Shown: positions 4,118 to 32,352 of the stretch, piece after piece
Layout of the letters: each line of letters begins with the position of its first letter
Numbering within the stretch: position 1 is the stretch's first letter
Assembly (NCBI GenBank): GCA_964510235.1
Contig: CAZEBF010000001.1
Span: 13,001-77,000, forward strand
From: an uncultured Candidatus Saccharibacteria bacterium
Lineage (GTDB): Bacteria; Patescibacteriota; Saccharimonadia; Saccharimonadales; CAYUUR01
Direction: 5' to 3'
DNA: 64,000 nt
Translations under genes and position numbers: made by a program
The notes under the pieces: model-generated
What the model was told of the DNA's origin: nothing
Database searches by the model: none
What the model saw: only the letters and a program-made list of their open reading frames with translations

Positions 4118-5641
4118 CTAGCGGATGGTTGGGCGGTCAGCTTTCCACTTAGCGACAGCGTTGGTCCAAACGGCTTTGTCTTTAGTAATCTTGAAGCAAC
4201 TTGGTAGCGTGTATGGAAATTCGCCCTCACCAAGCCAAACAAACGTATTATTCTTGCAAGACTTCACTTCTGCGTTTGCAGGGATTGATAAGTTACCGAT
4301 GCTCGACTTTCGGTCAGCCATGAATACATTATTCTCAATTACTAACTTGGGTCCTTTGTCTTTCGCGTACCAACCTTTAAACAACATAGCGAAACCGTAA
4401 TTGCCGTACTTCTCTGGCTTAAACATAGTGTAGTACGGTTTCATGCTCATCAGATTGTTGCGGATTGTCCAGGTGTTATTCTGACCATTCGGATTTATCC
4501 CATCGTACGTTGCAGCACTAAAGCCTGCAAAACAGCCCTCAAACAGTGAATCCTCTGTTATGCCATTATGCAGAAAATCATTTTCGACACAGTCATCATG
4601 TATGTCTGACATATACACGTCCTTGATATGGAAGTTTGCCGCCCGTGACTCCATACGAATACCGTCGCCTTGGTTGTGCGCCCGATAGCCCTCCACCAAG
4701 AAGTCACTCATTCGGATCGTCATCGCACCAGCATGATGATAGTCTTTTGACCACGTAACATCTGGCGAGCGGTCATTCCATGCACCAGTGTACTTACCGC
4801 CGTACCAACAGGCTGGGCCAGCTCCATCGACGCCAATTGCCCATGATACCGGTACTCCTGTTGAGGTCGTACCGTCCCAGTAGGCACGACGAGCGTCGTA
4901 GACGGTGTTTTTAGCGATAGAGTAATCGCGGTATTCTCGTTTTTGCAGATCAGACAGTACTTTTCGCGACCCCTTGCGGTTTAGGCAGATGGAATTTTCT
5001 GCAGTTCTACTGCTTGCTGCTTTGTTGCAGTCAATAAATGATGATGGATTGATAGTCGCAGCCTGGAACTCCTTGAGGGCAGCCTGATATGCAGCGTCCG
5101 TTTTGAAGGTCTTCCTAACTGGTTGGACCGAGTACTGAGGCTTTGACTGGCCAGAACGACTTTGTGCGCTAAACACCAGCTCATCGCCACCACTCTGAGA
5201 AAGTACCAGCTGCATGGCCGTAACTTCACCACCCCACCACTGGGTGTTTGTGGTTGTCCGACCGGCAGACTGTGTAGCCCTCTTTTTCTGATACACCGTT
5301 GCGACAGCTTTAGCATTCATAACACTCTTGGGTTTGGTCGCCAGGATAGTTGCCGTAATCCGGTCGCCACTGACTGTTTTACAAGCATGAAAGGCGACCT
5401 GAGCACTACTTTTTGGGTTGCTGCGAATATCAACCTTGGTGTAACTCGCCGCTTTGGCGGTCAAGTCACGCTGATGATATTGCGAATACAGTGTAATTGA
5501 GACCAACGATACAACTCCGGCGAACAGAACCAGCAGCAATAGTTTTTGCCACACACGAAGCCCGCTTAGACCGCGGCGCCCACCAACCCGCACTTGTTTG
5601 CGTTGAGTTTTTTTGGTTTGAGGTTTCTTGCGTTGTGCCAT
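4118..5641 (-). CDS. Membrane-anchored secreted protein with asparagine-ladder, right-handed beta-helix-like (pectate-lyase-like) features.
   Basis: The N-terminus has a basic stretch followed by a TM helix. The C-terminal half has repeated NNxF/NNTF/NNVF motifs. Confidence 0.35.
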   Translation of the reverse strand: MAQRKKPQTKKTQRKQVRVGGRRGLSGLRVWQKLLLLVLFAGVVSLVSITLYSQYHQRDLTAKAASYTKVDIRSNPKSSAQVAFHACKTVSGDRITATILATKPKSVMNAKAVATVYQKKRATQSAGRTTTNTQWWGGEVTAMQLVLSQSGGDELVFSAQSRSGQSKPQYSVQPVRKTFKTDAAYQAALKEFQAATINPSSFIDCNKAASSRTAENSICLNRKGSRKVLSDLQKREYRDYSIAKNTVYDARRAYWDGTTSTGVPVSWAIGVDGAGPACWYGGKYTGAWNDRSPDVTWSKDYHHAGAMTIRMSDFLVEGYRAHNQGDGIRMESRAANFHIKDVYMSDIHDDCVENDFLHNGITEDSLFEGCFAGFSAATYDGINPNGQNNTWTIRNNLMSMKPYYTMFKPEKYGNYGFAMLFKGWYAKDKGPKLVIENNVFMADRKSSIGNLSIPANAEVKSCKNNTFVWLGEGEFPYTLPSCFKITKDKAVWTNAVAKWKADRPTIR

Positions 5642-10858: not shown

Positions 10859-11803
10859 ATGAGGAAGTTACGAGCGTACCAGATCGCCACGATACTACTC
10901 GCAGTTTTATGCGTAGTGCTGGCTTATCAGGTAATGACAACCAAGGACAAGTTGCCGTCAAAAGCTCAGAGCGAATACCCGCTGCTGGCCAAACGCATCT
11001 TTTTGGATCAACCAAACGACACAATTATCAACTTTTCACCCCTCAGAGAAGACGTCAAAAAGTATTTAGCTGACTCTGGTATTCCGCACAGCTTTTACTT
11101 TGAATACCTGCCAACAGGTACGAGCATTCGTGATGGAGAAGCAAACGAACTGGTCGGAGCCTCACTCATGAAGATACCTATCGTTATGGACCTATACAAA
11201 GCTGCCGAGATGGGCAAAGTCGACCTCGACAAGCAAGTCACCGTGCCTCAAGAAGCCGTCAGTAACGACGGTGTATACGGCAATACCGAGCAGCTCAAGC
11301 CAGGCGATCAGATCACGCTGCGTGAAGCCGCAAAAATTGCCCTTACAGAATCTGACAACACGGCTGCTTACCTTGTCTACGCCGCCACGAAAGACATTAT
11401 AAGCGCCGATGATTCCTCTATTAAACGGCTCGACGTAGAGCTCAATGAGACGACCACGTCGTCGGGAAACTATGTATTAATCGGTGCTCGCTCTTACTCA
11501 TCGTTTTTACAATGTTTGTACTTCAGCTGTCACCTCAGCTTCAACGATTCCCAAGAGATACTTGGCTACTTAACGGAGTCCGAAGACAACAACCGATTAC
11601 GCGCAGGCGTGCCAAGCGACGTCAAAGTAGCACGCAAGATTGGTTCATTTAGCGATCAGACCCAGAGTGACTGCGGTATTGTATATGTGCCGAACCGCCC
11701 GTACACCCTTTGTCTCATGCTTCAAGTCGACGACAAGAACGCCGACAAGCATTTCCAGGTAGTATCAAAGAAGGTCTACGACTACGTTACGACCACCAAC
11801 TAG
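10859..11803 (+). CDS. Class A beta-lactamase-family serine hydrolase, membrane-anchored.
   Basis: It has the SxxK motif (SLMK), the SDN loop (ESDNTAAYL) and a KxG motif (ARKIGSF), after an N-terminal TM helix. Confidence 0.65.
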   Translation: MRKLRAYQIATILLAVLCVVLAYQVMTTKDKLPSKAQSEYPLLAKRIFLDQPNDTIINFSPLREDVKKYLADSGIPHSFYFEYLPTGTSIRDGEANELVGASLMKIPIVMDLYKAAEMGKVDLDKQVTVPQEAVSNDGVYGNTEQLKPGDQITLREAAKIALTESDNTAAYLVYAATKDIISADDSSIKRLDVELNETTTSSGNYVLIGARSYSSFLQCLYFSCHLSFNDSQEILGYLTESEDNNRLRAGVPSDVKVARKIGSFSDQTQSDCGIVYVPNRPYTLCLMLQVDDKNADKHFQVVSKKVYDYVTTTN

Positions 11804-14800
11804 TTAATTTTTAACCGGCGGTACTGGAACGTCTATCGTCTTGGCATCTTTGACGCTTACCGCGGTCCATGCGAACTCGATATCTTGTGTGGCATCTTCT
11901 GGCAAGATGATAGTAAAGCCTTCTTTAGTTAGATCATCGTAGGCGAACTGGGCGAACTTACCGTTCTTAATGTTCACAGTGACAACAGGCGTGTCATCGT
12001 ACGGTTTCTCAAACTTGATCACCACTTTCTTCTGTGTCTTGTAGATGGTAGCGAAGCCGGCCGCATCGTTGTTCTGGGTCAGACGACCCTCAATCTCGAC
12101 ATCGTTACGGAAGATGACACTATCTACGAAAGTGGCCATGCGGTGGAAGACGCTTGTGTTGAGGAATTCGACCGGTCCAACCACCTTGAGCGCGCCGTTA
12201 GCGAATAATGCGCCTTCTACCGTCAGACTCTCGCCCACTTTGGCGGTCTTGACCACGAAGTCATCCAGATTAACGCTAGCCTCTGTGAGTTCACTGCCGC
12301 CCGCTTCTGTCGCCGCCTTTGGTCGTGATGTCAGCTTACCAACCAACACTTCAAGACCTTCGATCTTATTGGCCTTAATACTGTCAGCGGTGATGTCTTT
12401 GGCATTGATACTGACGCCGTTGATTTCGTACGCGCTGACTCGATCAGTTAAGATCTCAGAGTTGTCTTCTCCTGGGGCTTGCTGCTGCTTGCGGCCAATC
12501 AGGTAACGGATGATGTCATCAGATTTCTTCAGCTTATCGGCCAAAACACCTTCTTGCAGATTCACTAATGGACCAAGCACGGTGTCTGGCATGGTAAAGC
12601 CACCGTTGCCGAACTCTTCCATGGCTACTTCAACTCTCTGACCGTTGTAATCGACCAGATTCACAAAGACCATCACCGTGCCACATCGAGCACCAGCAGG
12701 ACTACCGTCTGGGCAGTCAATGAGCGTCTCCGTGTTAAGATCCTCCAACACAGTACCGACTACCCGACCAGCACCAACTGCTTTCATTCCATAACCAGCA
12801 ACCGTACTTGAAGTGATACGGTCACCGGATTTGATGGACTCGCCTGGTTTGATCAAGACTTTTACCGGTACGCGTCCACTCAATGCAATCGGGTACGAGT
12901 TCTCTTCTTGTGGACCAATAATGAGACCTGGGTTGGTGGCAACAATACCCAGTGTTTTGTCGTCATATGGCTTGCTTGATGGTACTACCTCACCAACCGA
13001 GTTGTCTTGCATGCTCACTATGTCACCCGGAACAAGCGAATCAAACGATGTGAAGCGCTCGGCAAGGTCAGCACCACCAACACCACCAACCTCAGACGAT
13101 ACTCCTGCCATACCATCAACAATCAGCTCACCACGAATCGATGAGATGTTGTTAAAGAATCGGTCCATGTCTTGTTCAAGGTTGCGGTCTGATTTCTCAA
13201 GCCACAGGTTAGCTGAGGATCCCATTACAACGATGCCATTTTCGACAGAAAGTGCGTCAATATCATCGGCATCAGCGCCTGTCCAGCTAGCGCCAGAGCT
13301 ATCGGTTACTCCAGTATCTGAATGGTATACATTCGAGACAAAGGCATTGGCGTAACCACTAAACACGCTGACTGCCCCGCCATCGGTGCCATTACTGGTT
13401 CCTACGTACAGATCGGGGTTTGAGCCCAGGAAGTTCGTGTTATTGAGGCCAATTGACGTCACAATGTTAGTATCACCATAGAGTTTTTCCGGTATGACTT
13501 CGTAGTCTGAATCAGTACTAGGCGTAACTGTCCATGCAGGACTGACAGTTAAAGTCGTGCCATCATTAGCAATAACCCGACGAGATTGTCCTGCACCCGT
13601 GCCGGCTGTTATTTCTACAAAGCTGCCGACGAATGAGTTCGGTACATAGGTTTCAGCCGAATCGCCAATAGTCGTACTACTGAAAGTAGTCGCAGCGGTA
13701 ACAACTGTTGAAGGTTTTGCTAGGGCGCCGCGTCCTTCCAGATAGATCTTTCGAATCTGGGCTTGTGTCAAAGTATCTGATACAGTTGCGCCGCCACCCG
13801 AAAAGTATACATCGTCGATATCGCCATCCCAGAAGTTGCCACCGGCTGCACCACTACCGTCAGCACCAATAGTTAAAATCTGTGATGCGTCTAGCGTCAA
13901 GGTAGCAGCCAAAGCCGTATCGCAGGTACTGGCCTGCTTTCCGTCAATATAGAGACAGAGCCCAGTATCCGTATTGACCGCTGCAACATGGTGCCACTGA
14001 CCATCGTTATACGTTTGTGTCGATGTAACCGAATCGTCATAGGCTGCAGTTGCAGCAGTGTCTTGTATACCGAACACTATGCTACCTGAGGAGTTCATTT
14101 CGACGGTGTAGCCCGCACCTTCAGTTCCACCAAGAGCCGAGAATCGCTTGTCAATCAACACATCCGTTCCCGCGATTGCCGTGGAGTGCCTGAACCATGC
14201 ACTAACACTAAACGACAGTGCTGCTACGTTGAAGTCCGCATCTGTATCACAAGTTCCGTCATTGTTAGCATCTGAACAGAGGAATTGGCTCGTGCCGTTG
14301 AATCTCAGCCCTGTGCCATGAACACCATTAACCCCATAAGTTGGCGCAACTTCTGGCTCAAGTACGCTGTTTCTAATCGTCGAGTCCGTCAAATCACCAG
14401 ATAGGTTGTCGAAACTAAACATACCTCGCTGCGTACCAGTCATGTATGAGGTTTCACGACTTGTGTTGTAGTGTTTTGACCAGCCGATTACCGTACCAGA
14501 CGGAACGTTAACATCGTGAACTTCGGTCAAGCCGGCTGAATGACCAACGTAGAGAAGGTCGGCTGCATCGTCTGCCATTGAGGCACGTTCAACTACTTTG
14601 AGTGCGTCTGGCGCACCGACTGCAAATGTTGGAGCAGCGGCACCATTCGCAACATTCGGCAAGTTGCCGGCGGCTTCATCAAACAAGTCAGATGGAGTCG
14701 CTTGGTCAGCCTTGGCAACGTCAATACCGACCGTTCCATTTGCCTGTGTACCATACCGTTCTACCTGGCTGAGCGTTACATTGAGGCCATACAAACGACC

Positions 14801-17800
14801 ACGTTTAGTGACATACACTGCGCTAAACTGATCAGTTAAGTTATCGCCGTAATCTAATGTTTTTTGCTCTGACAGGTTAACTACAGATATCGAGTCATCT
14901 GTGGCTGCAGCGATGAAGGTTTTTCCGTTACCTGGGCCACCGTTAGTTTCAATACTACTTGATCCATACAAGACCGAACCGTGTACTGCATTTACAGCGT
15001 TGTGCCGGATCGCCAAGGCTGTCCTACTATCAAGGTTGTAGGTCACTGCCGTGTTTCTGTTAGCAATGTTCTTATCGCCTTGGTCGCGGTCGGTTGTATT
15101 GTAGTTGTACATCCTATCTTGGGTAAAGTCGATAGCATACATTCCACCCGCTGAAGCGCCATTAGCACCGACGTAAACTACACCGTTAAGCGCAAACACA
15201 CTCGATGGATCGTTATTGGTGTCAACACCAATTGCGTAGCCAGCTGCGTTCTGGTTGAACTTCATAAACATTTTGTAGTCGTTAGCGTCAAAGATGTAGA
15301 CAGCACTGGTAGTCGATACGATAATAGCTTTCTTTGGGAATCCTGAAGAGCCACAACGAGTATCACTCGCGATGTTACAAGCGTCACCAAATCCATCGTT
15401 CTTTGTCTCAGTGTACCAGCTGAGCGACTGAGACGTTGGTGAATTAGTCCAAGCACCGGTGTCCGAATCTTTAGTAGTGTCATAGACGTGTACATCGGTA
15501 ATGCCGGTCAACCCAGTCTGCTTGGTGATACCCTTCTTGACCAGGTCACCGTACAAGTCAATCTGCCCAGCAGCACTCGCGCTACCAACCTGGAAGGTTC
15601 CGTCAGTTTTGAGTGTGGCGACATCGCTACGATAGAGGGTCGTGTCGCGTGATGAGCCAAAAGCGATACCGGCACTTGCTGTCGTATTATTTGCATTACT
15701 ACTAAGCCACAACGTCTGCGTGTCTGCCGCCTCAATTGCCACACCATAGTCACTAGTACCATTGGTTTGCGCCTCAACGAACACTCCATAGTTTGATGTT
15801 ATCGTAGAAGAGCTGATTGACGCACTTTGTATGTGCAAGCCGTATCCGTCTGTCAGCGTACCACCACCTGTTAGATTAAGGTGTCCCTGCAGTCCTGCTC
15901 CTTCAGTTATTGTACCTCCGAAAAGGAAGGAGGCAACTTCACCACGCACTCCTACCGCCATAGTGACCCCGCCGGTAAGTACCGCACTTGCACCACCCCT
16001 GATACCGTACAGATACTCGGCATTCGTGCCAGTACTAGCCCCGCCTGCAAATGCGTTTATACCGTATGCCGTGGCAGTTCCGGCGCCCGAATTATCAGTG
16101 TTATTCAGTATATCTAGGCCGTAAGAATTGATTGTTCCGCCCGTGGCGCCAGTTCTCGTCACGGCAATGCGCTGACCATAGGTACTATCTGTACCTGTAT
16201 TTACGACTCCTGTGTCGCTGACGGTTACTTTCAGGCTATATTCATCACTGGCAGTAGTATTGGTGCTTGTAAGCGCCGTGTCTATCTCGCCGCTATCAGC
16301 AATAGTTAATACTGCGGTACCATTGTCTTGGACAATGAAGTCGCCCGTGCCTGCCAAGTTAGTGACAACATTGCCCGACCCATTGTTCGTTATCGTATAA
16401 GCTGGGTTATCGGTTGCATCAAGGGTGTAAGTATACGCACCGGCATCGCTGAGTGTCATAAATGCCGTGCCGTTGTCTTGGAACTCGATGTCGCCAGCAC
16501 TCGCTAAGTTGAAAACCACATCCGCAGCGTCAACTGAGGCGGACGTGACCCGCAAAGGTGAGGCCGTCGAGCCAGTCAGTGTCGCCATATCAGTTATAAA
16601 TTGATCTTGTGTGCCGCCACCGGTTGACGCTGCGTTCTCAGTAAATGTAAAGCCACTTTCGGCTGCGGTCAGCTGCCAATTCCACACCACATTGTTGTCG
16701 GCGTTGTTGATACTTGCCCCTGTTGTTGCAGCAGTCACTTGATCAAGACGAGCCCCGCTACCGCCAGCACCACAACCGGCATCAGTCGTGTTACAAACTG
16801 TCTTGACGACGCCGTTTTCTATAATCTTCACCTTGTTGAGCGTTGAGTCATAGAACAAGCCACCATTGAGCGCACTCAAGTTGCTCGTCGGATCAGCTGT
16901 TGCAGCATCGAGCTGTAGAATGGTTGTATCGCTATCAGTGCCAGTTGAGTTGCCAACTTTAACCAAATTACCACCGCTACCACTCCGCGCCGCGGTATCA
17001 ACTTGTAGCACATTAGCTCCAGCACTCTGTACCCGGAAAGCGTCTACCGAAGCTGCCGAAGGATTAAACAACGTATTCCCTGTCGCCCCCACTGAAGCCA
17101 GCACCGTTCCAGCACTATTCTGCCACTCCTGGAGATTGGCGGTTTGGCCAGCAAAACCCTGAACGACGAGGCCTTTACGCCCGACTGCGTTTGAATTGAA
17201 CTGTACCGCTGCAGCATCGTCCGCAGTATTATTGGCATTCACGGTAAGCTTGTTGTTCGTTCCGTAGCTTGTTGCGTTTAAACCAAGCTGACCTCCGTCA
17301 CTAAACCGCATCATCTCAGTGTATGTCGTAGAGCTTCCGTCGAAGCCCCAAGAGAAGTAATTCCCGGAAGTATTACCGTCTTGATCAGCAACGTTGATGA
17401 TATTACCGTTGCTCGTAATTGAACCATAGTTTGAACTATAACCTAGGTTAAGCCTACTCGGATTTCCGCCGTTTCCGATTACTAGCGATGTATCAGTAGC
17501 GGCGCCACCCTGTACTCGAAAACTACCGTCTGTAGTCAGTATGTTGGCAGATGAACGATACAGATTAGTGTCACCGGAAGTACCAAATGTAAATCGTCCG
17601 GCCGACGATCGATTCAACACTTCAGTAAAGCCTTCGCCAAGTCGCAAGGTTGTGCCAGTAGATTCGAGGGCAAGATTGTTCGATATATAAACTAAGCCTC
17701 CGCTTGCGGTTGCAACACGTAGCGCCGAACCGGCCACAGTAAGTGAGTCGTCTGTTCTCAGTAAATCAGCTCCTGATCTATACAAATTCACGTCACCCGT

Positions 17801-20329
17801 ACTACCAAAGGTGAAGCCATCAAGATCTTGTGGGATTGCAACTCGCAAAGTTCTCGTAGCGCTGTTGTTCGGCATAACTTCAAAGCGCAGTTCACTACCA
17901 CCGCTGCCACTGGCAAAATCTTGTGAGGCAAAGGCTGTTATACCAGCCGAGTGATAGGCATTGTTGCTTGCGTCATATGCGCCACCTAGCAGTATGTAGC
18001 CTAAGCGGTCGCCTGAAGAAGTCGCCGCGCCGTCGTCTTGTATGCCGATGATGCCTGAGCCGCCAGTTGATGAAGAGGTGGCGGTCTGAATGAAGGCTGA
18101 CTGTACTGCGCCAGCACCTCTAACTGTTAGGTTGGCGGCGCTCAAGTACTGGTTGCCCGAACCTACCACCAAAGATCCGTCGCTCTTTACACTCCCCAAC
18201 ACAGTGCCAGAGCTATTCTGCCACTCTTGAAGGTTGGCAGTTTGACTGCCTGAACCACGCACAACTAACCCTTTAACATCTGTATTGGTATATACACTCA
18301 GACGCACACCGCTCAGTGGCGTCTGGTTACCAACAGATATCTGTTCGGTGGAAACAATGTCGCCATCAGCGGCAATTGCTGACAATACAGTGCCAGTACT
18401 ACTCTGCCACTCTTGAAGGTTGGCAGTTTGCGAGGCTAAGCCTTGGATTACCAACGGTTTGGCGGTCGTGGCAGAGGCGGTGATTATGGTGTTGGCTAAG
18501 TTGTCTACTGTGGTAGGAGTGTTGACACGTAATTTCTCGTTTGTGCCGCCCGTCAAGGAGTAGGCGCCAAACTGAGCGCCATATGACGAGGTTAGGCGCA
18601 GCTTAACCGAGCCGTTTGAACTGAGGTCAAGGTACTCATTCGCGCTTACGTAGGTTAATACTGTTCGCGCCTGGCCGCTACCGCCAAGTCCGTATAAGAT
18701 TGCTCCGTTACTGCCCACCCAGATTGGCGCGGTTGAGACTAACTGGTTAGATGAGTTCACGCCAAACGTGTAGTCGGCACTATTTGCCGCATTACGCCAG
18801 GCAATATTCTCTGCATTTGCCAGGCGGACAAAACCGGATGAAGCTGGTGTGCCCGTCGACACCAAACCTGGCGCATAAATGTACCCATTAGAAGCAACAC
18901 GCATTAATATCGAACCGGCATCGTTCTGCCATTCCTGGAGGTTGGCGGTTTGGCTGGTGGCACCACGAACCACCAAACCTTTGCTTCCCGCTGTTGAAGA
19001 ACCAATCAAAACTGTTGCATCTTCTGTAGTTGGACTGTTTACTGTCAACCGAGTATTGGTATTAACGGTACCAGTTGTATTGATGGCAAGCCTAGTATTA
19101 AGCTTAACTGCAGCTATCGTGTCAGCGTTTGCCGATAAAGTTGACGAATTACTACCTTGCCACAAGAACTGTATTGAACCACCAAAGTCACTAAACCCAC
19201 CCGAACTCAGAACCAGGCCACTACGATAACTTGCACCAGAATTGTAGTATCCGCCTATCTGGAGCGAGCCGCCGGCCGAACCGCTTGCATCGACCGCATT
19301 CGATAGCCGTAAAACCCCTGCGCTGAAGCGATTAAGGACTGCGTCACTGGCACTACCAAAGCGAATAGCGCCACTTGAGCTAACTGAAGTTAGTACCGCG
19401 CCCGTGCTATCCTGCCATTCCTGGAGGTTGGCGGTTTGGCCAGATGCACCCTGTACGCTTAAACCAGCGAAGCTTGCATCTGTACTAGTAACCTGCAAAC
19501 TTGCAGTTGGCGCAGGACTGTTAACCCCAACACGCTTATTTGACGTATCAACGCTAAATATCGTTGATAATCCTGTCGCATTCTTAACTTGTACCGCAGT
19601 AACCGAGTCTGTCTGTGGCTTAAATAATAGGTACCCTGCGTTATCTAGGACGAGCACGTCACTGCCTCCACGCTGTAACTTAAGTATGTCTCCTGTGGCG
19701 CCTGTCTTATTAATGCCGATTGAACCATTAGTCGTCGAATCAACCTGCAAGGAAGCCTGTCCAAGCTGAATCAGCTCATCCTTGGATAGGCCACCAAGTT
19801 TTTTTGCATTCTTTGCGTATGGGGTGGCGCTAAATCTAGTAAACGGCAACATTTCACCATCCCATGACGGACTGGCCGTTCCGCCTACGTCAATTGAGAG
19901 CCATAGGGTGTCTTGATTCCAGTCAACATCATTACCAAAGGGAGTTACCGACCCGAGGTATACTGAAAAATAACCGTTCTTAACCCTAACTTTGTCAGTG
20001 CTGACCCGAGTCTCAGTCCACTCAAGCGTACCGCTACAAGGTGAAGTACCTGATACTTCACAACCATCACCATCCTGATATACCTTAAATCGCAAATTAT
20101 AGAAGCCATCTGGCACAACTGCACCTGTATCATCTAGTAATCGAGCCTGGAAGTTCAACTGCTCGTTAATACCTGCAGAATTAACGGTCTGCCCCTGTTG
20201 CTGTGAGCGATAAAAACCAATCACACCAGATATAAACATGAGCCCTATGGCGCACAGGATGAGTGGATTCCAGAAATTGACTCTTACTCTCATTTGTTCT
20301 CTATGTGTATTAAGTAACCTTAACCACAT
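11804..20329 (-). CDS. Giant 2841-aa cell-surface protein. N-terminal signal/anchor, five QTANLQEWQ-containing repeat modules, a LamG/concanavalin-like domain, and a beta-rich, Gly/Thr/Ser-rich body.
   Basis: One uninterrupted ORF. The N-terminal hydrophobic segment is LILCAIGLMFISGVIGFY. The GLVV(R/Q)G..(S/G)QTANLQEWQxxxGxVL module occurs five times. FSVSAWFRHS...GxWHHVAAV resembles a LamG domain. Confidence 0.8.
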   Translation of the reverse strand: MWLRLLNTHREQMRVRVNFWNPLILCAIGLMFISGVIGFYRSQQQGQTVNSAGINEQLNFQARLLDDTGAVVPDGFYNLRFKVYQDGDGCEVSGTSPCSGTLEWTETRVSTDKVRVKNGYFSVYLGSVTPFGNDVDWNQDTLWLSIDVGGTASPSWDGEMLPFTRFSATPYAKNAKKLGGLSKDELIQLGQASLQVDSTTNGSIGINKTGATGDILKLQRGGSDVLVLDNAGYLLFKPQTDSVTAVQVKNATGLSTIFSVDTSNKRVGVNSPAPTASLQVTSTDASFAGLSVQGASGQTANLQEWQDSTGAVLTSVSSSGAIRFGSASDAVLNRFSAGVLRLSNAVDASGSAGGSLQIGGYYNSGASYRSGLVLSSGGFSDFGGSIQFLWQGSNSSTLSANADTIAAVKLNTRLAINTTGTVNTNTRLTVNSPTTEDATVLIGSSTAGSKGLVVRGATSQTANLQEWQNDAGSILMRVASNGYIYAPGLVSTGTPASSGFVRLANAENIAWRNAANSADYTFGVNSSNQLVSTAPIWVGSNGAILYGLGGSGQARTVLTYVSANEYLDLSSNGSVKLRLTSSYGAQFGAYSLTGGTNEKLRVNTPTTVDNLANTIITASATTAKPLVIQGLASQTANLQEWQSSTGTVLSAIAADGDIVSTEQISVGNQTPLSGVRLSVYTNTDVKGLVVRGSGSQTANLQEWQNSSGTVLGSVKSDGSLVVGSGNQYLSAANLTVRGAGAVQSAFIQTATSSSTGGSGIIGIQDDGAATSSGDRLGYILLGGAYDASNNAYHSAGITAFASQDFASGSGGSELRFEVMPNNSATRTLRVAIPQDLDGFTFGSTGDVNLYRSGADLLRTDDSLTVAGSALRVATASGGLVYISNNLALESTGTTLRLGEGFTEVLNRSSAGRFTFGTSGDTNLYRSSANILTTDGSFRVQGGAATDTSLVIGNGGNPSRLNLGYSSNYGSITSNGNIINVADQDGNTSGNYFSWGFDGSSTTYTEMMRFSDGGQLGLNATSYGTNNKLTVNANNTADDAAAVQFNSNAVGRKGLVVQGFAGQTANLQEWQNSAGTVLASVGATGNTLFNPSAASVDAFRVQSAGANVLQVDTAARSGSGGNLVKVGNSTGTDSDTTILQLDAATADPTSNLSALNGGLFYDSTLNKVKIIENGVVKTVCNTTDAGCGAGGSGARLDQVTAATTGASINNADNNVVWNWQLTAAESGFTFTENAASTGGGTQDQFITDMATLTGSTASPLRVTSASVDAADVVFNLASAGDIEFQDNGTAFMTLSDAGAYTYTLDATDNPAYTITNNGSGNVVTNLAGTGDFIVQDNGTAVLTIADSGEIDTALTSTNTTASDEYSLKVTVSDTGVVNTGTDSTYGQRIAVTRTGATGGTINSYGLDILNNTDNSGAGTATAYGINAFAGGASTGTNAEYLYGIRGGASAVLTGGVTMAVGVRGEVASFLFGGTITEGAGLQGHLNLTGGGTLTDGYGLHIQSASISSSTITSNYGVFVEAQTNGTSDYGVAIEAADTQTLWLSSNANNTTASAGIAFGSSRDTTLYRSDVATLKTDGTFQVGSASAAGQIDLYGDLVKKGITKQTGLTGITDVHVYDTTKDSDTGAWTNSPTSQSLSWYTETKNDGFGDACNIASDTRCGSSGFPKKAIIVSTTSAVYIFDANDYKMFMKFNQNAAGYAIGVDTNNDPSSVFALNGVVYVGANGASAGGMYAIDFTQDRMYNYNTTDRDQGDKNIANRNTAVTYNLDSRTALAIRHNAVNAVHGSVLYGSSSIETNGGPGNGKTFIAAATDDSISVVNLSEQKTLDYGDNLTDQFSAVYVTKRGRLYGLNVTLSQVERYGTQANGTVGIDVAKADQATPSDLFDEAAGNLPNVANGAAAPTFAVGAPDALKVVERASMADDAADLLYVGHSAGLTEVHDVNVPSGTVIGWSKHYNTSRETSYMTGTQRGMFSFDNLSGDLTDSTIRNSVLEPEVAPTYGVNGVHGTGLRFNGTSQFLCSDANNDGTCDTDADFNVAALSFSVSAWFRHSTAIAGTDVLIDKRFSALGGTEGAGYTVEMNSSGSIVFGIQDTAATAAYDDSVTSTQTYNDGQWHHVAAVNTDTGLCLYIDGKQASTCDTALAATLTLDASQILTIGADGSGAAGGNFWDGDIDDVYFSGGGATVSDTLTQAQIRKIYLEGRGALAKPSTVVTAATTFSSTTIGDSAETYVPNSFVGSFVEITAGTGAGQSRRVIANDGTTLTVSPAWTVTPSTDSDYEVIPEKLYGDTNIVTSIGLNNTNFLGSNPDLYVGTSNGTDGGAVSVFSGYANAFVSNVYHSDTGVTDSSGASWTGADADDIDALSVENGIVVMGSSANLWLEKSDRNLEQDMDRFFNNISSIRGELIVDGMAGVSSEVGGVGGADLAERFTSFDSLVPGDIVSMQDNSVGEVVPSSKPYDDKTLGIVATNPGLIIGPQEENSYPIALSGRVPVKVLIKPGESIKSGDRITSSTVAGYGMKAVGAGRVVGTVLEDLNTETLIDCPDGSPAGARCGTVMVFVNLVDYNGQRVEVAMEEFGNGGFTMPDTVLGPLVNLQEGVLADKLKKSDDIIRYLIGRKQQQAPGEDNSEILTDRVSAYEINGVSINAKDITADSIKANKIEGLEVLVGKLTSRPKAATEAGGSELTEASVNLDDFVVKTAKVGESLTVEGALFANGALKVVGPVEFLNTSVFHRMATFVDSVIFRNDVEIEGRLTQNNDAAGFATIYKTQKKVVIKFEKPYDDTPVVTVNIKNGKFAQFAYDDLTKEGFTIILPEDATQDIEFAWTAVSVKDAKTIDVPVPPVKN

Positions 20330-20449: not shown

Positions 20450-21604
20450 CTAGTGAACAGCTTTTTTATTAATCGAGTGGATAGCGACTCGTTCTCCGAG
20501 CCAAAAGCACAGTGTTAGAATACTAACGACGACAAAGACCGGGTAGGCCCGGTTCACACCATCTACAAGTTGGTTCTGGAATATACAGACTGCGTCTTGT
20601 TGGCAACGCTGAGATAGTGTGCCTGTTGATGACAGGTTAACTTCTTTAACTCCATCTACGATCACAACTGTCTGAAAGATCACTTTAGATCCATTGATAT
20701 CGGTTACTTCAATGATGACACGGTACTGGCCAGGTTTATCATATTGACGCGTCAAAGTGTACTCACCCGCCTCATCATAGACTCGTGTAGTTTGCCGTCC
20801 ATCACCCCACCTGATAAGTACGCTGTATGGACCCTGCCCACCAACAATGGTAAACGAAACACGAGCTTCCTTCTTAACCTGATCAACCCGGAAGTAGCCT
20901 TTAGAGGTCACCAGTAGGTCGGCTGGAGCTTGACCCACTGTACCGGTATTTGGCGGATTTGGACTATTAGTACCAGGTGTTTGTGGGTCAGTCGGGTTCA
21001 AAACTGGCGCGTCGTAAAATACTGTAGTGGTAGTGGAGTCTGGACCGTACTGGCTAATCACATCTCGAGTTCTTGCCACCAACGCATTGCTACCAGTGAT
21101 TAGTGTCACTATCAGGCTAAATGTCCCTGTGGGGCTACACACTACTGAACCAGCTAAATCACCGTTGCGATACAACTCTACAATAAAATCATGGTCACAG
21201 GTTCCCTCTATGGTTACAGTGTTGGCAGTAAATTGCTGTCCGTTAATCGGCTGCTGGATTACAGCAGGTACTGATGGAGGTGAACCAGGCACCAGTCCTG
21301 ACAACTGAATATCTCCAGATTCGGTAGCACCCTGAACAACAGTGTGTCGCACGAACATCAGGCAGCCCATCGTAAACAGTATCAAAAAAAAGATGAGTGC
21401 ATACGAAGTCTGGTGATACGGTAATCGCTTACCAGTGTGAGTATGATGGCTGTAGTGAACCGGCCTACGCTTAGGGTGTGGGTGAGCTTTGGCATGACGC
21501 ACCTGGCTAGTTGAAGCCGTTCGAGATTTATTTCTTCGTGCTACCATTGTTCTTCGAGCGACCTTGCGCCTTCTTAACAATGTAGCGATTGTAGCGTCGG
21601 ACAA
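20450..21604 (-). CDS. Membrane protein with a long basic cytoplasmic N-terminus and an Ig-like/beta-sandwich-looking ectodomain.
   Basis: An Arg/Lys/His-rich N-terminus is followed by a TM helix (YALIFFLILFTMGCLMFV) and a Thr/Pro/Gly-rich extracellular region. It overlaps the upstream gene, so the true start is probably internal. Confidence 0.45.
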   Translation of the reverse strand: MSDATIATLLRRRKVARRTMVARRNKSRTASTSQVRHAKAHPHPKRRPVHYSHHTHTGKRLPYHQTSYALIFFLILFTMGCLMFVRHTVVQGATESGDIQLSGLVPGSPPSVPAVIQQPINGQQFTANTVTIEGTCDHDFIVELYRNGDLAGSVVCSPTGTFSLIVTLITGSNALVARTRDVISQYGPDSTTTTVFYDAPVLNPTDPQTPGTNSPNPPNTGTVGQAPADLLVTSKGYFRVDQVKKEARVSFTIVGGQGPYSVLIRWGDGRQTTRVYDEAGEYTLTRQYDKPGQYRVIIEVTDINGSKVIFQTVVIVDGVKEVNLSSTGTLSQRCQQDAVCIFQNQLVDGVNRAYPVFVVVSILTLCFWLGERVAIHSINKKAVH

Positions 21605-22526
21605 AGAATACGATCAGAACGATGGCTAGAATAACCAGAGCAATTAACTTATACGGTATTACCCAGAAAGTTATGGAATCAGATACGATAGTATTTCTCT
21701 CTCCATATACAACATCAGCCTGAACAGTATATCGACCAAACAGTAACTTATCGCTCAGTTCTTGTTCGAACTTTCGTGTACTACCTGGCAAGACGTTACC
21801 GCCATTTTCGTTAAGAGCGAAAGTTGTTACTTCACGTCCGAACATATTGCTTACCCTGATCGAACCAGTTGGTTTAAAGAATACGTTACCTGTGTTTGTG
21901 ATTCGCTCAGCAATTGTAACTGGTCCATATTCAAACATATTCCTTTTCTTACCGTTCTGTGCTGTATACATTTCACTTATGACAGCCTGCTCCGTTGTAT
22001 CACCTGATACATTCACAAGCATAAGAGTACCGACACTTGCTGATAATGAGACTCCTGTGTCTTCAAGTTCAGGTGGTGTGCCTGTAAACCGAATAACCCC
22101 AAAGTGACCACCTGGACTGGCATTGTCAGGAACGCGCAACGTTACCTTGACTGACTTTTGCTCACCCTTTTTTAGCGTTATTGCTGGAATTGAAACGATC
22201 CAAGATTTGATTGAATATGGACTTTCCTCTTCCGCATCTAACAGCAGCTTTGGTTGACCATCTTCACCGTTAGCTACAAAGTCATTAATCTGTGACTTTA
22301 TTACGAGAGTATCCTGTGTGACATTGCGAACACGGATAGTAGAATTGATTACCTTGCCTGGATCTGCTTTTAATTCAATCAGAGGAGGCGAAATCTCCAA
22401 CCCCTGTCCACTTTGGCCATGCGCAATATCGGGCGTTATAAACATAAGCAACAAGATAGAAGCACTTGCAACAATACTCAACACTCTCTTCATATCAGTT
22501 GATGTCCCTCTTCCCCAAACTCTCAT
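21528..22526 (-). CDS. DUF916/CscA-like cell-surface protein with a signal peptide and a C-terminal TM anchor.
   Basis: The likely true start is MKRVLSIVASASILLLMFITPDIAHGQ, near 22493. The C-terminus is LIALVILAIVLIVFFV followed by the basic tail RRYNRYIVKK...KK. The overall layout matches DUF916 proteins. Confidence 0.4.
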   Translation of the reverse strand: MRVWGRGTSTDMKRVLSIVASASILLLMFITPDIAHGQSGQGLEISPPLIELKADPGKVINSTIRVRNVTQDTLVIKSQINDFVANGEDGQPKLLLDAEEESPYSIKSWIVSIPAITLKKGEQKSVKVTLRVPDNASPGGHFGVIRFTGTPPELEDTGVSLSASVGTLMLVNVSGDTTEQAVISEMYTAQNGKKRNMFEYGPVTIAERITNTGNVFFKPTGSIRVSNMFGREVTTFALNENGGNVLPGSTRKFEQELSDKLLFGRYTVQADVVYGERNTIVSDSITFWVIPYKLIALVILAIVLIVFFVRRYNRYIVKKAQGRSKNNGSTKK

Positions 22527-22548
22527 TGGTAACAGTATATCAGATTAA

Positions 22549-23625
22549 CTAGAACGTTGCGGTTGCAATGTATGTCATTGTCGCAGTATACGTACCGGCC
22601 TCCGTTGCAGTATCGATATTAGCAATGTAGGCTACCTGATAACGACGAAATGACTCAGACGTGCCCTTGCTCGCAACACTATCAGCCGTAACAAACCGGA
22701 ACTGATCGACAGTGTTATAGCTCGCTGCTGGCGTACCCGAGCCCGCACCGTCAGGGTCGGCACCAATATTCGGTGTAGCGTTGTCGCGCAGGTTCATTCC
22801 GAACTGCTCAGTTCCTGTTGTTGACGCAGTTTGAGACGCAAGTGCCGAAATAGTATTACCACCCGAAGTAAGCGTTGCTCCATTAACAGTAATCGCATAG
22901 CCACTTCCCCCGTTTGTACCTACACCCATCTGCGACAAACCAGTACCAGTAGTGCTTGCAGTTAGCGTTCCGAGAGCCACGGCGGAACCGGTCGCACCAG
23001 CACAGCTACTTGTTGTAATGCCACTCGTACCGGTACAAAAAGTAAGCGTCTCGTCAACAGTGGCGCTCACAGTGATTTGTTGGGCTGTACTTGCAGCGAC
23101 GGTACCGGTATCAACTGCTGTTGTCCAGGCGGCGTCAGAAAAAGTACTAATACGTGCGAAGAATGTGGTGTTTTGAGCTGTAGGGTTGGTGACTCCGCCA
23201 AAGACAACAGTCTGAGATCCGGTTGGCGCTGCAACGTTACCGCTCTTCGATATACGCAGACTGCCTGCGGTTACAGTACTCACCGTCCAACCGGAGGCGT
23301 CACCAAGGTTGGTTGGCTGTGAGGCGAGTGTTGAGCTAGAGTTAACAAAACCTGATGGAATGGAACATGCTCCCGAGGCAGTCGTACAAATCTGGGCTTG
23401 CATTGATTGGATTACAGTAGCGGAAGGTACAGTAAAATTAAACGTATAGGTAACGCCCGTGCCTGCACCGGCGGAATTAGAGAGAGTCAACTTGCGAGCG
23501 GTTATTTGAGCTGCTGAAACCTGAGCATTAAAGACAGACTGTAACGCAACCATCGCCAAGACAATGGCGATTACTATATAGGTTATTCGTTGGACTTTCT
23601 GCTGTGTCTGTGCAAATTTGGACAT
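22549..23625 (-). CDS. Secreted Thr/Ser/Gly/Ala-rich surface protein, paralogue A.
   Basis: It has a signal peptide. Its C-terminal block TEQFGMNL..N..P...YNT..FRFV...YIANIDTATEAGTYTATMTYIATATF is shared with the next gene. Confidence 0.5.
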   Translation of the reverse strand: MSKFAQTQQKVQRITYIVIAIVLAMVALQSVFNAQVSAAQITARKLTLSNSAGAGTGVTYTFNFTVPSATVIQSMQAQICTTASGACSIPSGFVNSSSTLASQPTNLGDASGWTVSTVTAGSLRISKSGNVAAPTGSQTVVFGGVTNPTAQNTTFFARISTFSDAAWTTAVDTGTVAASTAQQITVSATVDETLTFCTGTSGITTSSCAGATGSAVALGTLTASTTGTGLSQMGVGTNGGSGYAITVNGATLTSGGNTISALASQTASTTGTEQFGMNLRDNATPNIGADPDGAGSGTPAASYNTVDQFRFVTADSVASKGTSESFRRYQVAYIANIDTATEAGTYTATMTYIATATF

Positions 23626-23691
23626 GTTTGATTGTTACCTTAAGTGCTTTGCTAAATTGTACAATACATCATAAGCATAAACAACGACTTT

Positions 23692-24432
23692 CTAATATGT
23701 TCCTGTGCAAACAAGCGTCTGATTACCACTGTAACTTCCGCCTGCAGTGGTGTTAGCAGCGTTAATAATATACGACATAGTGTACTCGGTTAAGCCAGAG
23801 CTCGCTGCCGCTGAGGCTATCGTTTCACCTGCGACATACCGAAAGTTGTTGGCCGTATTGTAGTTACCCGCGGCTGTACCGGATGAAAAACTACTATCTG
23901 GCGTCTGTACAGGGTTGGCGCCAAACGTTGTTGGCGAAGTGTTAGCAACGAGATTAACACCAAACTGCTCAGTACCGGGCACCGATGGCCCAGTTGAGCT
24001 CATGCCGGCCAACGTATAGACACCTGTACTGGGCGGATTGCCGACTATTTGCACGATATATCCGTATGACGTGTAATTCAGGACACTAAATGTTGCGGTT
24101 GCAGTGGCCGTAACGGAGGTAGAAAGAGCACCAAAGTTGACATTCGCCGTGTCGACCGTACAGCTCAGTGATGGATCATTAGTAGTCACCGGGCCACTAT
24201 CAGCCCTGAAGTTTGTCGAGCCACTTGGCCCACCGCCAACGCCGTTAACTGCTTGCTGACCGGGGGCTGTACCGTAATTAGTAGAAGAACTTTCTAGGCT
24301 TCCACCCGGTCCAATAAAGGATTCGTCTATCTTAAAGTTGCTCGATGAACTCTGGGCAGACGCCAGGGTGCCACCAAAACAGAGCATAGAAACCACCAAG
24401 CAAACCCCTTCTAGAATCTTTCTCATGTACAA
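23692..24432 (-). CDS. Secreted Thr/Ser/Gly-rich surface protein, paralogue B.
   Basis: It has the signal peptide MRKILEGVCLVVSMLCFGGTLASAQ. Its C-terminal block TEQFGVNL...YNTANNFRYV...YIINAAN...GSYSGNQTLVCTGTY aligns with paralogue A. Confidence 0.5.
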   Translation of the reverse strand: MYMRKILEGVCLVVSMLCFGGTLASAQSSSSNFKIDESFIGPGGSLESSSTNYGTAPGQQAVNGVGGGPSGSTNFRADSGPVTTNDPSLSCTVDTANVNFGALSTSVTATATATFSVLNYTSYGYIVQIVGNPPSTGVYTLAGMSSTGPSVPGTEQFGVNLVANTSPTTFGANPVQTPDSSFSSGTAAGNYNTANNFRYVAGETIASAAASSGLTEYTMSYIINAANTTAGGSYSGNQTLVCTGTY

Positions 24433-24485
24433 ATCATTATACGGAGTTGGTCACGACAACGCAAAGCGCTCACGCTTGCAAGGCA

Positions 24486-25577
24486 CTAGTTAACGCTAAT
24501 GTAGACGCGGGCAGCTTGCTTATCTTTGAGGTCGTTGATATAGGTTTCGAGATTTTTGAAGTTAAAGACAACGTGCGCACCTTCGACTTTGTCTTCGTTC
24601 TTACTGATGGTCTTTACAATTTCCAGGCTATAACCAGTGTTAATAATCCCTGAGGTCTCGCCAGCATTGAGTCGAAACAGTGCATCCGTCGTCTGAGCAT
24701 TAATATCGCGATTTGACCGATCAATAGCAAAACCAAATGTACCACCGCGTGCTTTGCTAACCTCATCCTCTGAGTACTGTCGGGCTACGTCCTCAAACTT
24801 ACTACCATTTGTTAACAGCGCCAAAGCCTTCTCGGCGCGAGCCTGAGTGTCGGTATCAATCGCGGCTATGACTTTTTGCTCCAACAACCGTTGCTTGATA
24901 ACACGGCGAAAATCATCTACGGACCAGCCGAAGTTTTGCTTAAGCGCTTCCTCGTAGGCCTGTTCACTACCACCTAAACGGTTTTGACGTCGGAGCAGTG
25001 TAATCTGGTCTTCTACCTCTGTATTGCTGACACTAACATTGTTCTGTTTGGCCAATTCTTTGACGTAGGCATCATTAACTACCTTATCTATGGCTCGTTT
25101 TTTGTACTCCGCAAGCTGCTGTTGACCGGCTTCGGAGTTAAAGTCGAGCTTCTGTTGATTCTCATAGAAATAGATGTAGTGACGTAGTTCAAACAGATAG
25201 TTCTCGTAGGCCACAAAGCGTGAGCCGGTCTTGGCAATTGGGAACGGCACTACTTGTGTGACACGATACATAAAGCTCGATGTTGTCTCGAATCGATACA
25301 AGGCTGCTACTGAATAACTGAGGAAAATCACCGCTGCGGCGATAATGAGAGCAGTCGATATCATTACAATACGGTGTTTGGAATGCTGCAGTGGATATAT
25401 ATACTTACGGGCACTTCCTAGAACCTCTTCGCGGTGAGCGGCAACTGTCTCGTTTGTAATAGGACCTGACTTTGGAGCGTCAGGCGTCGACTTTTTGCGA
25501 TTCAGTATCTTCTTAATTTTCTTCTTCATAATCCTCTTCTTGGACGTCGTCATCTTGCAAATAGGTTTCCACCCCAT
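24486..25577 (-). CDS. Parvulin-type peptidyl-prolyl isomerase, PrsA/SurA-like and membrane-anchored.
   Basis: It has an N-terminal TM helix, a SurA-N-like domain and a PpiC rotamase block (GGTFGFAIDRS...). Confidence 0.65.
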   Translation of the reverse strand: MGWKPICKMTTSKKRIMKKKIKKILNRKKSTPDAPKSGPITNETVAAHREEVLGSARKYIYPLQHSKHRIVMISTALIIAAAVIFLSYSVAALYRFETTSSFMYRVTQVVPFPIAKTGSRFVAYENYLFELRHYIYFYENQQKLDFNSEAGQQQLAEYKKRAIDKVVNDAYVKELAKQNNVSVSNTEVEDQITLLRRQNRLGGSEQAYEEALKQNFGWSVDDFRRVIKQRLLEQKVIAAIDTDTQARAEKALALLTNGSKFEDVARQYSEDEVSKARGGTFGFAIDRSNRDINAQTTDALFRLNAGETSGIINTGYSLEIVKTISKNEDKVEGAHVVFNFKNLETYINDLKDKQAARVYISVN

Positions 25578-31860: not shown

Positions 31861-32352
31861 TTAGCCTTCTTGACAGACTTTGTCGCTAGTACCACCAGTT
31901 TCAACTGTGTACATAGCAGCAAATGCTCGTGAAGTAGCGTTGGTTGAAGTTGCATCGTCTCCGTTAGCAGCACACTTTGCACCACGGACTACCACAACTG
32001 TTGACTCAGTAGTGGCGTTGGTGTTAGTTGTTGCTCCGGCTACAAAAGTGACCTGACCAGAATAAATACCGAGCTTGGCATTTGAGAGTGCTGCCGCCTC
32101 TTCATTAGCTGCAGTTACCCCAGTTGGCAACGTAGGCTGACCAGGCAAGCGACCATTATTGTTGTTTGACCATTCCGAGACTGCACCGAGTACGCTCGCT
32201 ACATCATTTTTTCGTTGTGTGTTACGGCTGTTACGCTGCAAGGCTGGTACAGCCAAGAAGACGATTAGCATGATCAGTCCGGCGATTACTAGGACGATCA
32301 AGACTTCGATGATGGTGAAGCCTTTTTCTTGTTGTTTTACTTTTGATAACAT
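31861..32352 (-). CDS. pilA: Type IV major pilin, PilA copy 1.
   Basis: The prepilin leader MLSKVKQQEKG|FTIIEVLIVLVIAGLIMLIVFLAVPAL has class III signal features. The C-terminal region is variable. Confidence 0.8.
   Translation of the reverse strand: MLSKVKQQEKGFTIIEVLIVLVIAGLIMLIVFLAVPALQRNSRNTQRKNDVASVLGAVSEWSNNNNGRLPGQPTLPTGVTAANEEAAALSNAKLGIYSGQVTFVAGATTNTNATTESTVVVVRGAKCAANGDDATSTNATSRAFAAMYTVETGGTSDKVCQEG
32213..32322. repeat. 110-nt perfect direct repeat, copy A. It encodes the conserved N-terminal helix inside pilA copy 1.
   Basis: It is identical base for base to 32818-32927. Confidence 0.9.

Follow-up and report, generated by a model that had tools for sequence, protein, structure and literature searches.

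The DNA analysed here (the window: 64,000 nucleotides, to which all coordinates refer) was taken from contig CAZEBF010000001.1 of an uncultured Candidatus Saccharibacteria bacterium (assembly GCA_964510235.1) and carries on its minus strand a gene for a giant protein of 2841 residues. Our preferred reading, held with some reserve, is that this protein is a membrane-anchored and probably trimeric receptor-binding fibre resembling a phage tail fibre. The protein contains an internal domain homologous at the profile level to the auto-chaperone of the phage phi29 tailspike gp12, and a module, named here after its motif QTANLQEWQ, that is repeated five times and also occurs in phage tail-fibre genes. 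Both bear out the impression of a tail-fibre-like protein given by a preliminary description of the same DNA.

The giant gene and its protein

The open reading frame is uninterrupted over 8.5 kb, as the preliminary description had stated. The corresponding NCBI record (P0001) is identical in sequence and gives a protein of 2829 residues, with the start placed 12 codons further in, at 20293 (M13). The body had been described as dominated by Gly, Thr, Ser and Asn; the measured composition (G 11.7, T 10.4, A 10.2, S 10.0 and N 6.8%) agrees with this and adds Ala. The G+C content of the gene (0.49-0.51) is in line with that of the window. A scan of the protein against NCBIfam gave no match, and the sole match in a PHROG scan was marginal (phrog_14221, function unknown, E = 0.016, residues 497-618). 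The features of the gene are as follows, with the evidence in brackets.

11804..20329, minus strand: giant gene, 2841 residues plus stop codon (single open reading frame, no internal stop)
20207..20275, minus strand: N-terminal hydrophobic segment, residues ~19-41 (top Kyte-Doolittle window; position kept in 82 relatives)
19580..20182, minus strand: conserved N-domain and neck, residues ~50-250 (common to 82 of the first 120 hits)
19358..19543, minus strand: QTANLQEWQ module 1, residues 263-324 (profile and motif)
18872..19081, minus strand: QTANLQEWQ module 2, residues 417-486 (profile and motif)
18350..18544, minus strand: QTANLQEWQ module 3, residues 596-660 (profile and motif)
18164..18343, minus strand: QTANLQEWQ module 4, residues 663-722, in tandem with module 3 (profile and motif)
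17072..17272, minus strand: QTANLQEWQ module 5, residues 1020-1086 (profile and motif)
14375..15532, minus strand: predicted beta-propeller, first part, residues ~1600-1985 (start of the core conserved across Patescibacteria)
13799..14245, minus strand: LamG/concanavalin-like domain, Pfam residues 2029-2177, inserted in the propeller (Pfam, PDB profile search, AlphaFold2)
13490..13621, minus strand: small beta-barrel, residues ~2237-2280 (GSFVEITAGTGAGQSRRV...), after the LamG domain (AlphaFold2, pLDDT >90)
13190..13477, minus strand: predicted closing blades of the beta-propeller, residues ~2285-2380, then a helix, residues 2384-2407 (AlphaFold2)
12650..13075, minus strand: auto-chaperone-like domain of the phi29 gp12/Peptidase_G2 intramolecular chaperone (IMC) type, residues ~2419-2560 (profiles, hhalign, AlphaFold2)
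12080..12649, minus strand: linker, residues ~2561-2750, partly helical, of low confidence and of varying length between relatives (AlphaFold2)
11837..12076, minus strand: terminal H-type-lectin-like beta domain, residues ~2752-2831 (Pfam hits of the family, AlphaFold2 pLDDT ~80)

Conserved C-terminal core

A search with residues 1579-2841 found about 50 proteins, from Saccharibacteria, Campbellbacteria, Pacebacteria and Gottesmanbacteria, that retain the whole core of 1260 residues at 38-59% identity; their NCBI name is at best 'LamG domain-containing protein'. Since close relatives vary between zero and five QTANLQEWQ modules while these homologues keep the core, the core appears from the alignments to be the conserved functional unit and the modules to be spacer material.

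Residues 1642-2841 were modelled with AlphaFold2 from 59 sequences, with a mean predicted local distance difference test (pLDDT) score of 78.5. The model contains an all-beta propeller made up of residues ~1656-1980 and ~2290-2380, within which the LamG domain (residues ~1989-2178), a helix and the small barrel are inserted. As modelled, the propeller is seven-bladed and WD40-like; it had gone unnoticed in the earlier outline of the architecture, which had recognized the LamG domain. The latter was matched by the Pfam family Laminin_G_3 (PF13385) with E = 4.6e-18 and 66.2 bits against a curated cut-off of 27.6 bits, its family profile found the LG domains of neurexin and laminin in the PDB (E = 1e-6), and in the model it folds as a beta-sandwich with a pLDDT of ~90.

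Auto-chaperone-like domain

Residues 2420-2562 form a confident beta domain in the AlphaFold2 model (pLDDT 85-90). A profile of 24 sequences of this domain from the Candidate Phyla Radiation (CPR) was compared with the PDB and found 3gqh_A, the C-terminal domain of gp12, the preneck appendage protein of phi29 (E = 0.17), with an alignment that begins at residue 1 of the cleaved chain and places DLAE over DFAE. Eight of the 24 CPR members matched PF11962 (Peptidase_G2, 'IMC autoproteolytic cleavage domain'), the best with E = 4e-4. The 24 sequences were also aligned using hhalign to a set of eight gp12-type domains from Bacillus, Clostridium, Staphylococcus, Vibrio and Cobetia phages, giving a probability of 95.8% and E = 6.8e-9 over 117 columns. 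The A, D, A and E of the motif GGADLAE are invariant in the 24 CPR sequences, and the D, A and E also in the eight phage sequences. These profile comparisons show the GGADLAE domain to be a homologue of the auto-chaperone of the phi29 tailspike gp12, and by analogy cleavage is predicted at A2420|D2421, with E2424. The C-terminal domains of the phi29 and K1F tailspikes are required for trimerization and are cleaved off afterwards (PMC3357383, PMC4690869).

In the giant protein the domain is internal: 421 residues extend from D2421 to the stop, ~280 of them after the domain. Among 172 collected CPR proteins, 63 have the same order, in which the domain is followed by a linker (19-283 residues, mostly ~150-220) and a terminal lectin-like domain. 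Four further proteins (P0028, P0059, P0079 and P0092) carry a Peptidase_S74 domain of the endosialidase type 90-190 residues upstream of the same terminal H-lectin-like domain (Pfam E = 1e-10 to 1e-14 in three; P0079 by the SDARLK motif only), and two unrelated chaperone types share one internal slot in the CPR giants. The repeated cassette of chaperone, linker and terminal domain argues for a real chaperone function and for a separate role of the tail.

A short gp12-type form of ~125 residues, starting (Y)ADLAE, was found in 239 stretches of IMG/VR, and every alignment starts at ADLAE. In all 80 loci that were kept (L169-L248) it makes up the last 115-140 residues, behind an upstream part of 64 to >2000 residues in proteins of 190 to >2100 residues. 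The Pfam model Peptidase_G2 detects the CPR versions poorly.

Terminal domain

The C-terminal region had been described as a single beta-rich region of about 350 residues. Beta domains are indeed present; the region consists of three parts, not one block, namely a beta domain of 140 residues (~2420-2560), a low-confidence helical linker of ~190 residues and a terminal beta domain of ~85 residues. AlphaFold2 places the last of these at residues ~2757-2826. Of 29 family members, 26 matched the Pfam family H_lectin (PF09458) here at E <= 0.1 (best 4.7e-6), and a profile of the terminal domain gave the Helix pomatia and Helix aspersa agglutinins and discoidin-2 in the PDB (E = 0.18-0.8). From these family profiles we describe the domain as H-type-lectin-like. 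Solved H-type lectins, for example the Helix pomatia agglutinin, assemble as trimers, which would fit a three-fold fibre tip.

The QTANLQEWQ module

The exact motif QTANLQEWQ occurs at residues 298, 460, 634, 696 and 1062, in all five copies in the context G(L)VV(R/Q)G..(S/G)QTANLQEWQ..(S)G.VL. A profile made with 312 modules from other proteins likewise found exactly five copies in the giant protein (E = 1e-21 to 1e-24), so that the five-fold module reported earlier was recovered by both routes. The five modules are 42-51% identical to each other as protein and 64-77% as DNA, and the nine codons of the motif vary synonymously between copies (ACC/ACT, CTC/CTT, CAG/CAA, GAA/GAG and AAC/AAT). 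Because of this low identity and these synonymous differences, the motif appears to be under purifying selection, and its five-fold occurrence to be due neither to chance nor to recent duplication.

The module is a unit of 60-70 residues with a near-invariant core (Q43, A45, L47, W50, Q51, G55 and G65), usually found in arrays. In a low-confidence AlphaFold2 model of two tandem modules the only confident part is a three-stranded meander around QEWQ..G.VL..V..G. A search of BFVD with this model gave weak matches only, all of them to phage tail or structural proteins, and comparison of the module profile with the PDB gave nothing at E <= 10.

The only Pfam matches on the motif, sub-threshold ones to the family CSN7a_helixI, a eukaryotic signalosome helix, fall exactly on NLQEWQ (residues 638-653, window 18368-18415), and the same family is the precomputed Pfam label of the module-rich proteins P0027, P0053, P0061, P0081 and P0084. 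We consider the label spurious and due to the repeat, which has no model of its own. A second stalk motif, F(T/A)FG(S/T)..D..LYRS.A..L.TD.(S/T)(L/F).V, occurs three times outside the modules, at residues 849, 923 and 1565 (window ~17770, ~17550 and ~15620).

Distribution of the module

A profile of 70 modules was compared with 1.84 billion representative proteins. The module family is not peculiar to the giant protein: 10,706 proteins were found at E <= 1e-3, 4,702 at E <= 1e-10 and 1,309 at E <= 1e-30. Up to 27 copies per protein were counted by profile (23 in the same protein by motif), at a usual spacing of 60-75 residues, and among the first 120 homologues the variants QTANLQEW, QTADLQQW and QTANLTEW are present in many proteins. 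The preliminary description had considered that the module might be a known, characterized repeat family. It is an unannotated repeat of very wide occurrence, without a Pfam or PHROG model, and no published description of the motif was found.

Module loci were scanned using alignment A2, the first alignment (A1) being too diverse. Among GTDB species representatives 118 module-encoding stretches were found, mostly in Saccharibacteria and other Patescibacteria. Other carriers are Verrucomicrobiota, Planctomycetota, Nitrospirota, Acidobacteria and Elusimicrobia, as well as the predatory bacteria Micavibrio, Oligoflexales and Bacteriovoracaceae (L028, L036, L053 and L066), the cultured Bacteroidota isolate Pedobacter nyackensis (L071) and a DPANN archaeon (L048, a metagenome-assembled genome of the Nanoarchaeia).

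IMG/VR yielded 454 module-encoding stretches. In phage locus L082 the module gene has a head-decoration gene on one side and the portal gene on the other, with the terminase close by; in L123 two genes, for a virion structural protein and for a tail protein, precede it; the module gene of L151 is near the major head protein gene. Outside the module, six of eight phage module proteins match PHROG families of tail fibre, minor tail or tail proteins (E = 1e-35 for L103 and 2e-25 for L151). Judged by these gene contexts and matches, the QTANLQEWQ module is a part of phage tail fibres. Among 50,697 records of cultured phages, tblastn gave no match for residues 250-760 (the module region), 760-1089 or 1090-1600; the C-terminal 440 residues gave one weak match, to a Sinorhizobium jumbo phage.

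N-terminus, stalk and relatives

Residues ~19-41 are the only strongly hydrophobic stretch of the giant protein, and no obvious AxA cleavage site was seen near it by eye. We read the segment as a probable signal-anchor or uncleaved signal peptide, which would anchor the protein in the membrane as the preliminary description had proposed. The N-domain that follows is always N-terminal in CPR giants, the bodies of which otherwise differ (Kelch, beta-helix, carbohydrate-binding module (CBM) or S74). It has no Pfam match, and its best PDB profile hit, 3sz6, is non-significant (E = 0.29).

Relatives of 2096, 2451, 3515 and 3551 residues, ~80% identical in the shared parts, are encoded at a syntenic locus. 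Close relatives are collinear over the N-terminal ~320 residues and over the C-terminal part from residue ~1090. The stalk between these conserved ends is replaced, either by zero to five modules or by SGNH or CBM domains; a replaced middle with kept ends is what diversifying pressure on a receptor-binding protein would be expected to produce. A check for a diversity-generating retroelement found no template/variable repeat pair involving the giant gene.

The relatives bear the organism names 'Candidatus Saccharibacteria bacterium' and 'Patescibacteria group bacterium', and the organism is of the Saccharibacteria type. The earlier description of a giant, beta-rich, modular protein is supported. 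The giant protein has no Pfam domains of the YadA-type trimeric autotransporter adhesins; one relative has been given such a name by the Joint Genome Institute (JGI). The gene is intact in four other close relatives (P0002 and P0004-6). An orthologue in GCA_964267615 (CAXWIW010000001.1, L159:8001-16488), 87% identical, has several frameshifts within ~300 nucleotides near residues 2230-2290, which could be due to sequencing or assembly error or to decay.

Locus and neighbouring genes

The neighbouring genes are as follows.

20450..25577, minus strand: upstream cluster on the same strand as the giant gene (Pfam, termini read directly; gene order kept in L157, L159 and L160)
24486-25577, minus strand: PrsA/SurA-like peptidyl-prolyl isomerase (Pfam)
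Within 20450-25577, minus strand: two secreted (signal-peptide) proteins of 246 and 358 residues (no Pfam match)
21528-22526, minus strand: WxLIP_PGBD protein with a C-terminal transmembrane segment (Pfam)
20450-21604, minus strand: Ig/PKD-like membrane protein (Pfam)
10859-11803, plus strand: beta-lactamase-fold gene, convergent with the giant gene (Pfam)
26933-27862: tyrosine recombinase with an XerC/D-type domain pair, ~6.6 kb from the giant gene

The giant gene closes the conserved same-strand cluster, the gene order of which is the same in three related genomes. The WxLIP_PGBD protein resembles CscA of the Gram-positive WxL surface complexes, and the cluster may serve to assemble or dock the fibre. 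Neighbours with Pfam matches are the isomerase and beta-lactamase-like, glyoxalase and HAD proteins; the syntenic loci of relatives include genes for nucleoside-diphosphate kinase and glycosyltransferase. The giant gene thus stands among cellular neighbours at a syntenic locus, with no virion gene recognized among the flanking genes examined.

The last bases of the giant gene and of the beta-lactamase-fold gene convergent with it are adjacent (11803/11804), without a spacer or room for a terminator; in the relative L157 the two convergent genes overlap by 4 nucleotides (14288-14291). A second beta-lactamase-fold protein, fused to PG_binding_4 (581 residues), is encoded at 46995-48740 on the minus strand. 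The window also encodes PilB-like and PilC-like type IV pilus proteins, FtsK, RNase J and PNPase. A direct repeat of 146 nucleotides with 90% identity, at 32208-32353 and 32813-32958, takes in the 5' end of each of two small neighbouring genes on the minus strand (163 and 173 residues), beside the PilC-like and PilB-like genes; the two small genes are probably paralogous pilins with a common N-terminus. Pfam gave no match at E <= 1e-5 for two large minus-strand open reading frames, of 834 (39883-42387) and 507 residues (4118-5641); three others separate the former from the PilB-like gene (35306-37102), which it precedes by ~2.8 kb on the upstream side.

Proposed function and alternatives

According to the preferred reading, the giant protein would follow the plan of a phage receptor-binding protein but be fixed in the bacterium's own membrane. 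The hydrophobic segment would hold the chain in the membrane, with the N-domain next to the envelope. The stalk, rich in Gly, Thr, Ser and Ala and containing the five tail-fibre-type modules, would set the reach and be freely exchanged between strains. The core would form the distal head, a seven-bladed propeller with the inserted LamG domain and small barrel, and the chain would end in a coiled linker and the H-type-lectin-like tip. After Sec export the phi29-gp12-type chaperone would nucleate trimerization from the C-terminus and might, like that of phi29 gp12, cleave itself at the predicted point. Glycans or proteins on the surface of a host bacterium would be bound by the propeller/LamG head and the lectin tip. 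The domain content and the variation of the gene suggest such host-cell attachment, and the PrsA-like foldase and the envelope proteins of the cluster are counted in favour of a surface fibre.

A more far-reaching version, which we regard as speculative and rather unlikely, is that in this CPR family a phage-type chaperone has moved inside the protein, between the membrane-anchored fibre and a tail of coiled coil and H-lectin domain (sister proteins having the S74 chaperone in such a place), and that cleavage after trimerization is a maturation switch arming a host-recognition fibre. The cut would then free, or leave non-covalently docked, a trimeric lectin piece of 421 residues and expose the propeller/LamG head. 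The giant protein would be a bacterial counterpart of MyRF-type processing, and episymbionts and phages would draw on one exchangeable kit of host-recognition parts.

Several points weigh against the fibre as proposed. Only the auto-chaperone homology and the known trimers of H-type lectins suggest trimerization, and no finding connects the protein with a host cell as opposed to the envelope of the organism itself. PF11962 gave no hit on the giant protein itself, its assignment coming from the family profiles; likewise, its match to H_lectin (E = 0.0015, 19.1 bits) is under the 24-bit cut-off. The CPR auto-chaperone domain is without an insertion of ~50 residues that is present in the phage versions, and because of this and the internal position of the domain cleavage may not occur. 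The AlphaFold2 monomer of the two tandem modules is poor (pLDDT 66.9, predicted template-modelling score 0.34). None of 79 complete phage module proteins has a domain of the G2, S74 or H-lectin type, the S74 mini-profile used here comprising four sequences and being insensitive; modules and chaperone are therefore not an obligate pair. Finally, the frameshifted orthologue of GCA_964267615 is a broken gene, annotated as two proteins of 2245 and 512 residues.

The protein might instead be a structural coat, a fibre in the organism's own envelope (for spacing, protection or cohesion) whose lectin and LamG domains bind its own wall polymers. That the N-domain is common to many CPR giants and that the cluster encodes a WxL-interacting-type peptidoglycan-binding protein together with a PrsA-like foldase would suit this, as would the thick fibrous surfaces of CPR cells, which are ascribed to giant proteins (PMC8080830). 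The rapid swapping of the stalk among ~80%-identical relatives fits recognition of a variable external target better, however, as does the sharing of the modules with phage receptor-binding proteins. Neither point is incompatible with a coat, which we consider unlikely while taking it seriously. We think it less probable still that the head is a tailspike-like depolymerase, that is, a glycosidase or lyase acting on host capsule or cell-wall polysaccharide, with binding secondary. The domain order does resemble that of K1F endosialidase, in which a propeller with a lectin barrel is combined with a stalk and a C-terminal chaperone (PMC3357383), and the top 19 matches in a Foldseek search of the PDB were trypanosomal sialidases and trans-sialidases, consisting of propeller and lectin domain (E = 4e-11). 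Many charged and aromatic propeller residues are moreover invariant across the family, including R1658, D1681, D1734, R1748, R1758, Y1764, D1811, E1857, E1914 and R1915, and the bodies of relatives include SGNH lipase, CBM, GH28-like or beta-helix domains. The Foldseek matches, however, have template-modelling scores of only 0.19/0.30 and root-mean-square deviations of 13-14 A. The six-bladed propeller and active site of the sialidases and endosialidases (glycoside hydrolase families GH33 and GH58) were not found, Pfam and NCBIfam gave no glycoside hydrolase or lyase match, and neither an RIP motif nor proper Asp-boxes could be seen by eye.

An origin as a tail-fibre gene of an integrated prophage or tailocin remnant would account for the phage-type module and auto-chaperone, and the tyrosine recombinase gene is near at hand. 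This recombinase has the domain pair of XerC/D, though, and the flanking genes examined with Pfam gave no capsid, portal, terminase or tail match, which makes such an origin unlikely. Further points against it are the conservation of the locus in at least three related genomes, the membrane segment and CPR-specific N-domain with which the protein begins, and the G+C content of the gene, which matches the window; altogether we find a phage remnant very improbable. Even less credence is given to a decaying gene or assembly artefact without function. The frameshifted copy in GCA_964267615 speaks for it; against it are the uninterrupted 8.5 kb frame, the four intact close relatives, the conservation of the core in about 50 homologues and the apparent purifying selection on the motif. 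The membrane-anchored receptor-binding fibre remains the reading that we prefer.

To our knowledge, host choice and attachment by ultrasmall Patescibacteria are largely unexplained beyond type IV pili. The giant protein is a candidate for host recognition that can be dissected, with a conserved head, a lectin-like tip, a strain-variable stalk and a predicted self-processing site. Its analysis also exposes two common building blocks without annotation, the QTANLQEW fibre module, which spans about 10,700 protein clusters from phages, from CPR and predatory bacteria and from a nanoarchaeon, and the short gp12-type auto-chaperone. With models of both, receptor-binding proteins in metagenomes could be annotated better. 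Should the parts in common result from exchange between phages and episymbionts, the host-range determinants of two very different kinds of bacterial parasite could be studied together.

Comparison with known systems

The closest parallel to the auto-chaperone-like domain is gp12 of the Bacillus phage phi29 (MEROPS/Pfam Peptidase_G2; PDB entries 3GQH, 3GQK and 3SUC). Both proteins have the homologous domain, with D-x-A-E directly after the cleavage point (predicted in the giant protein), downstream of a large beta-structured receptor-binding body, and in both the domain is expected to drive trimerization (PMC3357383). They differ in the phage insertion mentioned above, in the position of the domain (C-terminal in all 80 phage loci, whereas here a linker and a lectin-like domain follow), in the body (beta-helix in gp12, propeller and LamG domain here) and in the anchoring, which is to the virion for gp12 and would be to the cell membrane for the giant protein. 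K1F endosialidase (GH58) likewise has a propeller with an inserted lectin-type domain followed by a C-terminal intramolecular chaperone, and its S74 chaperone is itself used by sister CPR giants. Its propeller is that of a six-bladed sialidase, whereas the giant protein has a predicted seven-bladed WD40-like propeller in which no catalytic signature was found, a chaperone of another family and an additional terminal H-lectin-like domain.

With the tail fibres of uncultivated phages the giant protein shares the module of 60-70 residues and its core Q-T/S-A-N/D-L-x-x-W-Q...G...G. The phage proteins are encoded in virion structural blocks and match tail-fibre PHROGs outside the module; they are mostly of 400-2000 residues and are without the membrane segment, the CPR N-domain and the core of propeller, LamG, chaperone and lectin domains. 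The terminal ~85 residues match the H-type lectins (Helix pomatia agglutinin, C-terminal domain of discoidin-2) at the profile level in the family (26 of 29 relatives), but not above the Pfam cut-off in the giant protein itself.

The giant surface proteins of CPR and other ultrasmall or predatory bacteria, such as those of Vampirococcus lugosii (PMC8080830) and the essential glycan-binding envelope proteins of Southlakia epibionticum (PMC10633639), are likewise very large, membrane-associated and rich in adhesion domains, and host recognition is proposed for them. The passages searched in the two papers make no mention of the module, of a phage-type auto-chaperone or of the 1260-residue core. 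MyRF, a eukaryotic membrane-bound transcription factor (PMC8326128), is also a membrane-anchored cellular protein with an internal, phage-derived chaperone/cleavage domain, so that trimerization-dependent cleavage would part two functional pieces; for the giant protein this is an analogy only. The MyRF domain is of the S74 type, and kingdom, topology and function are different. On the preferred reading the giant protein is of a known kind, that of the tail-fibre- or tailspike-like trimeric adhesins, and what is new is the internal chaperone followed by a lectin tail, in a CPR cell and not on a virion.

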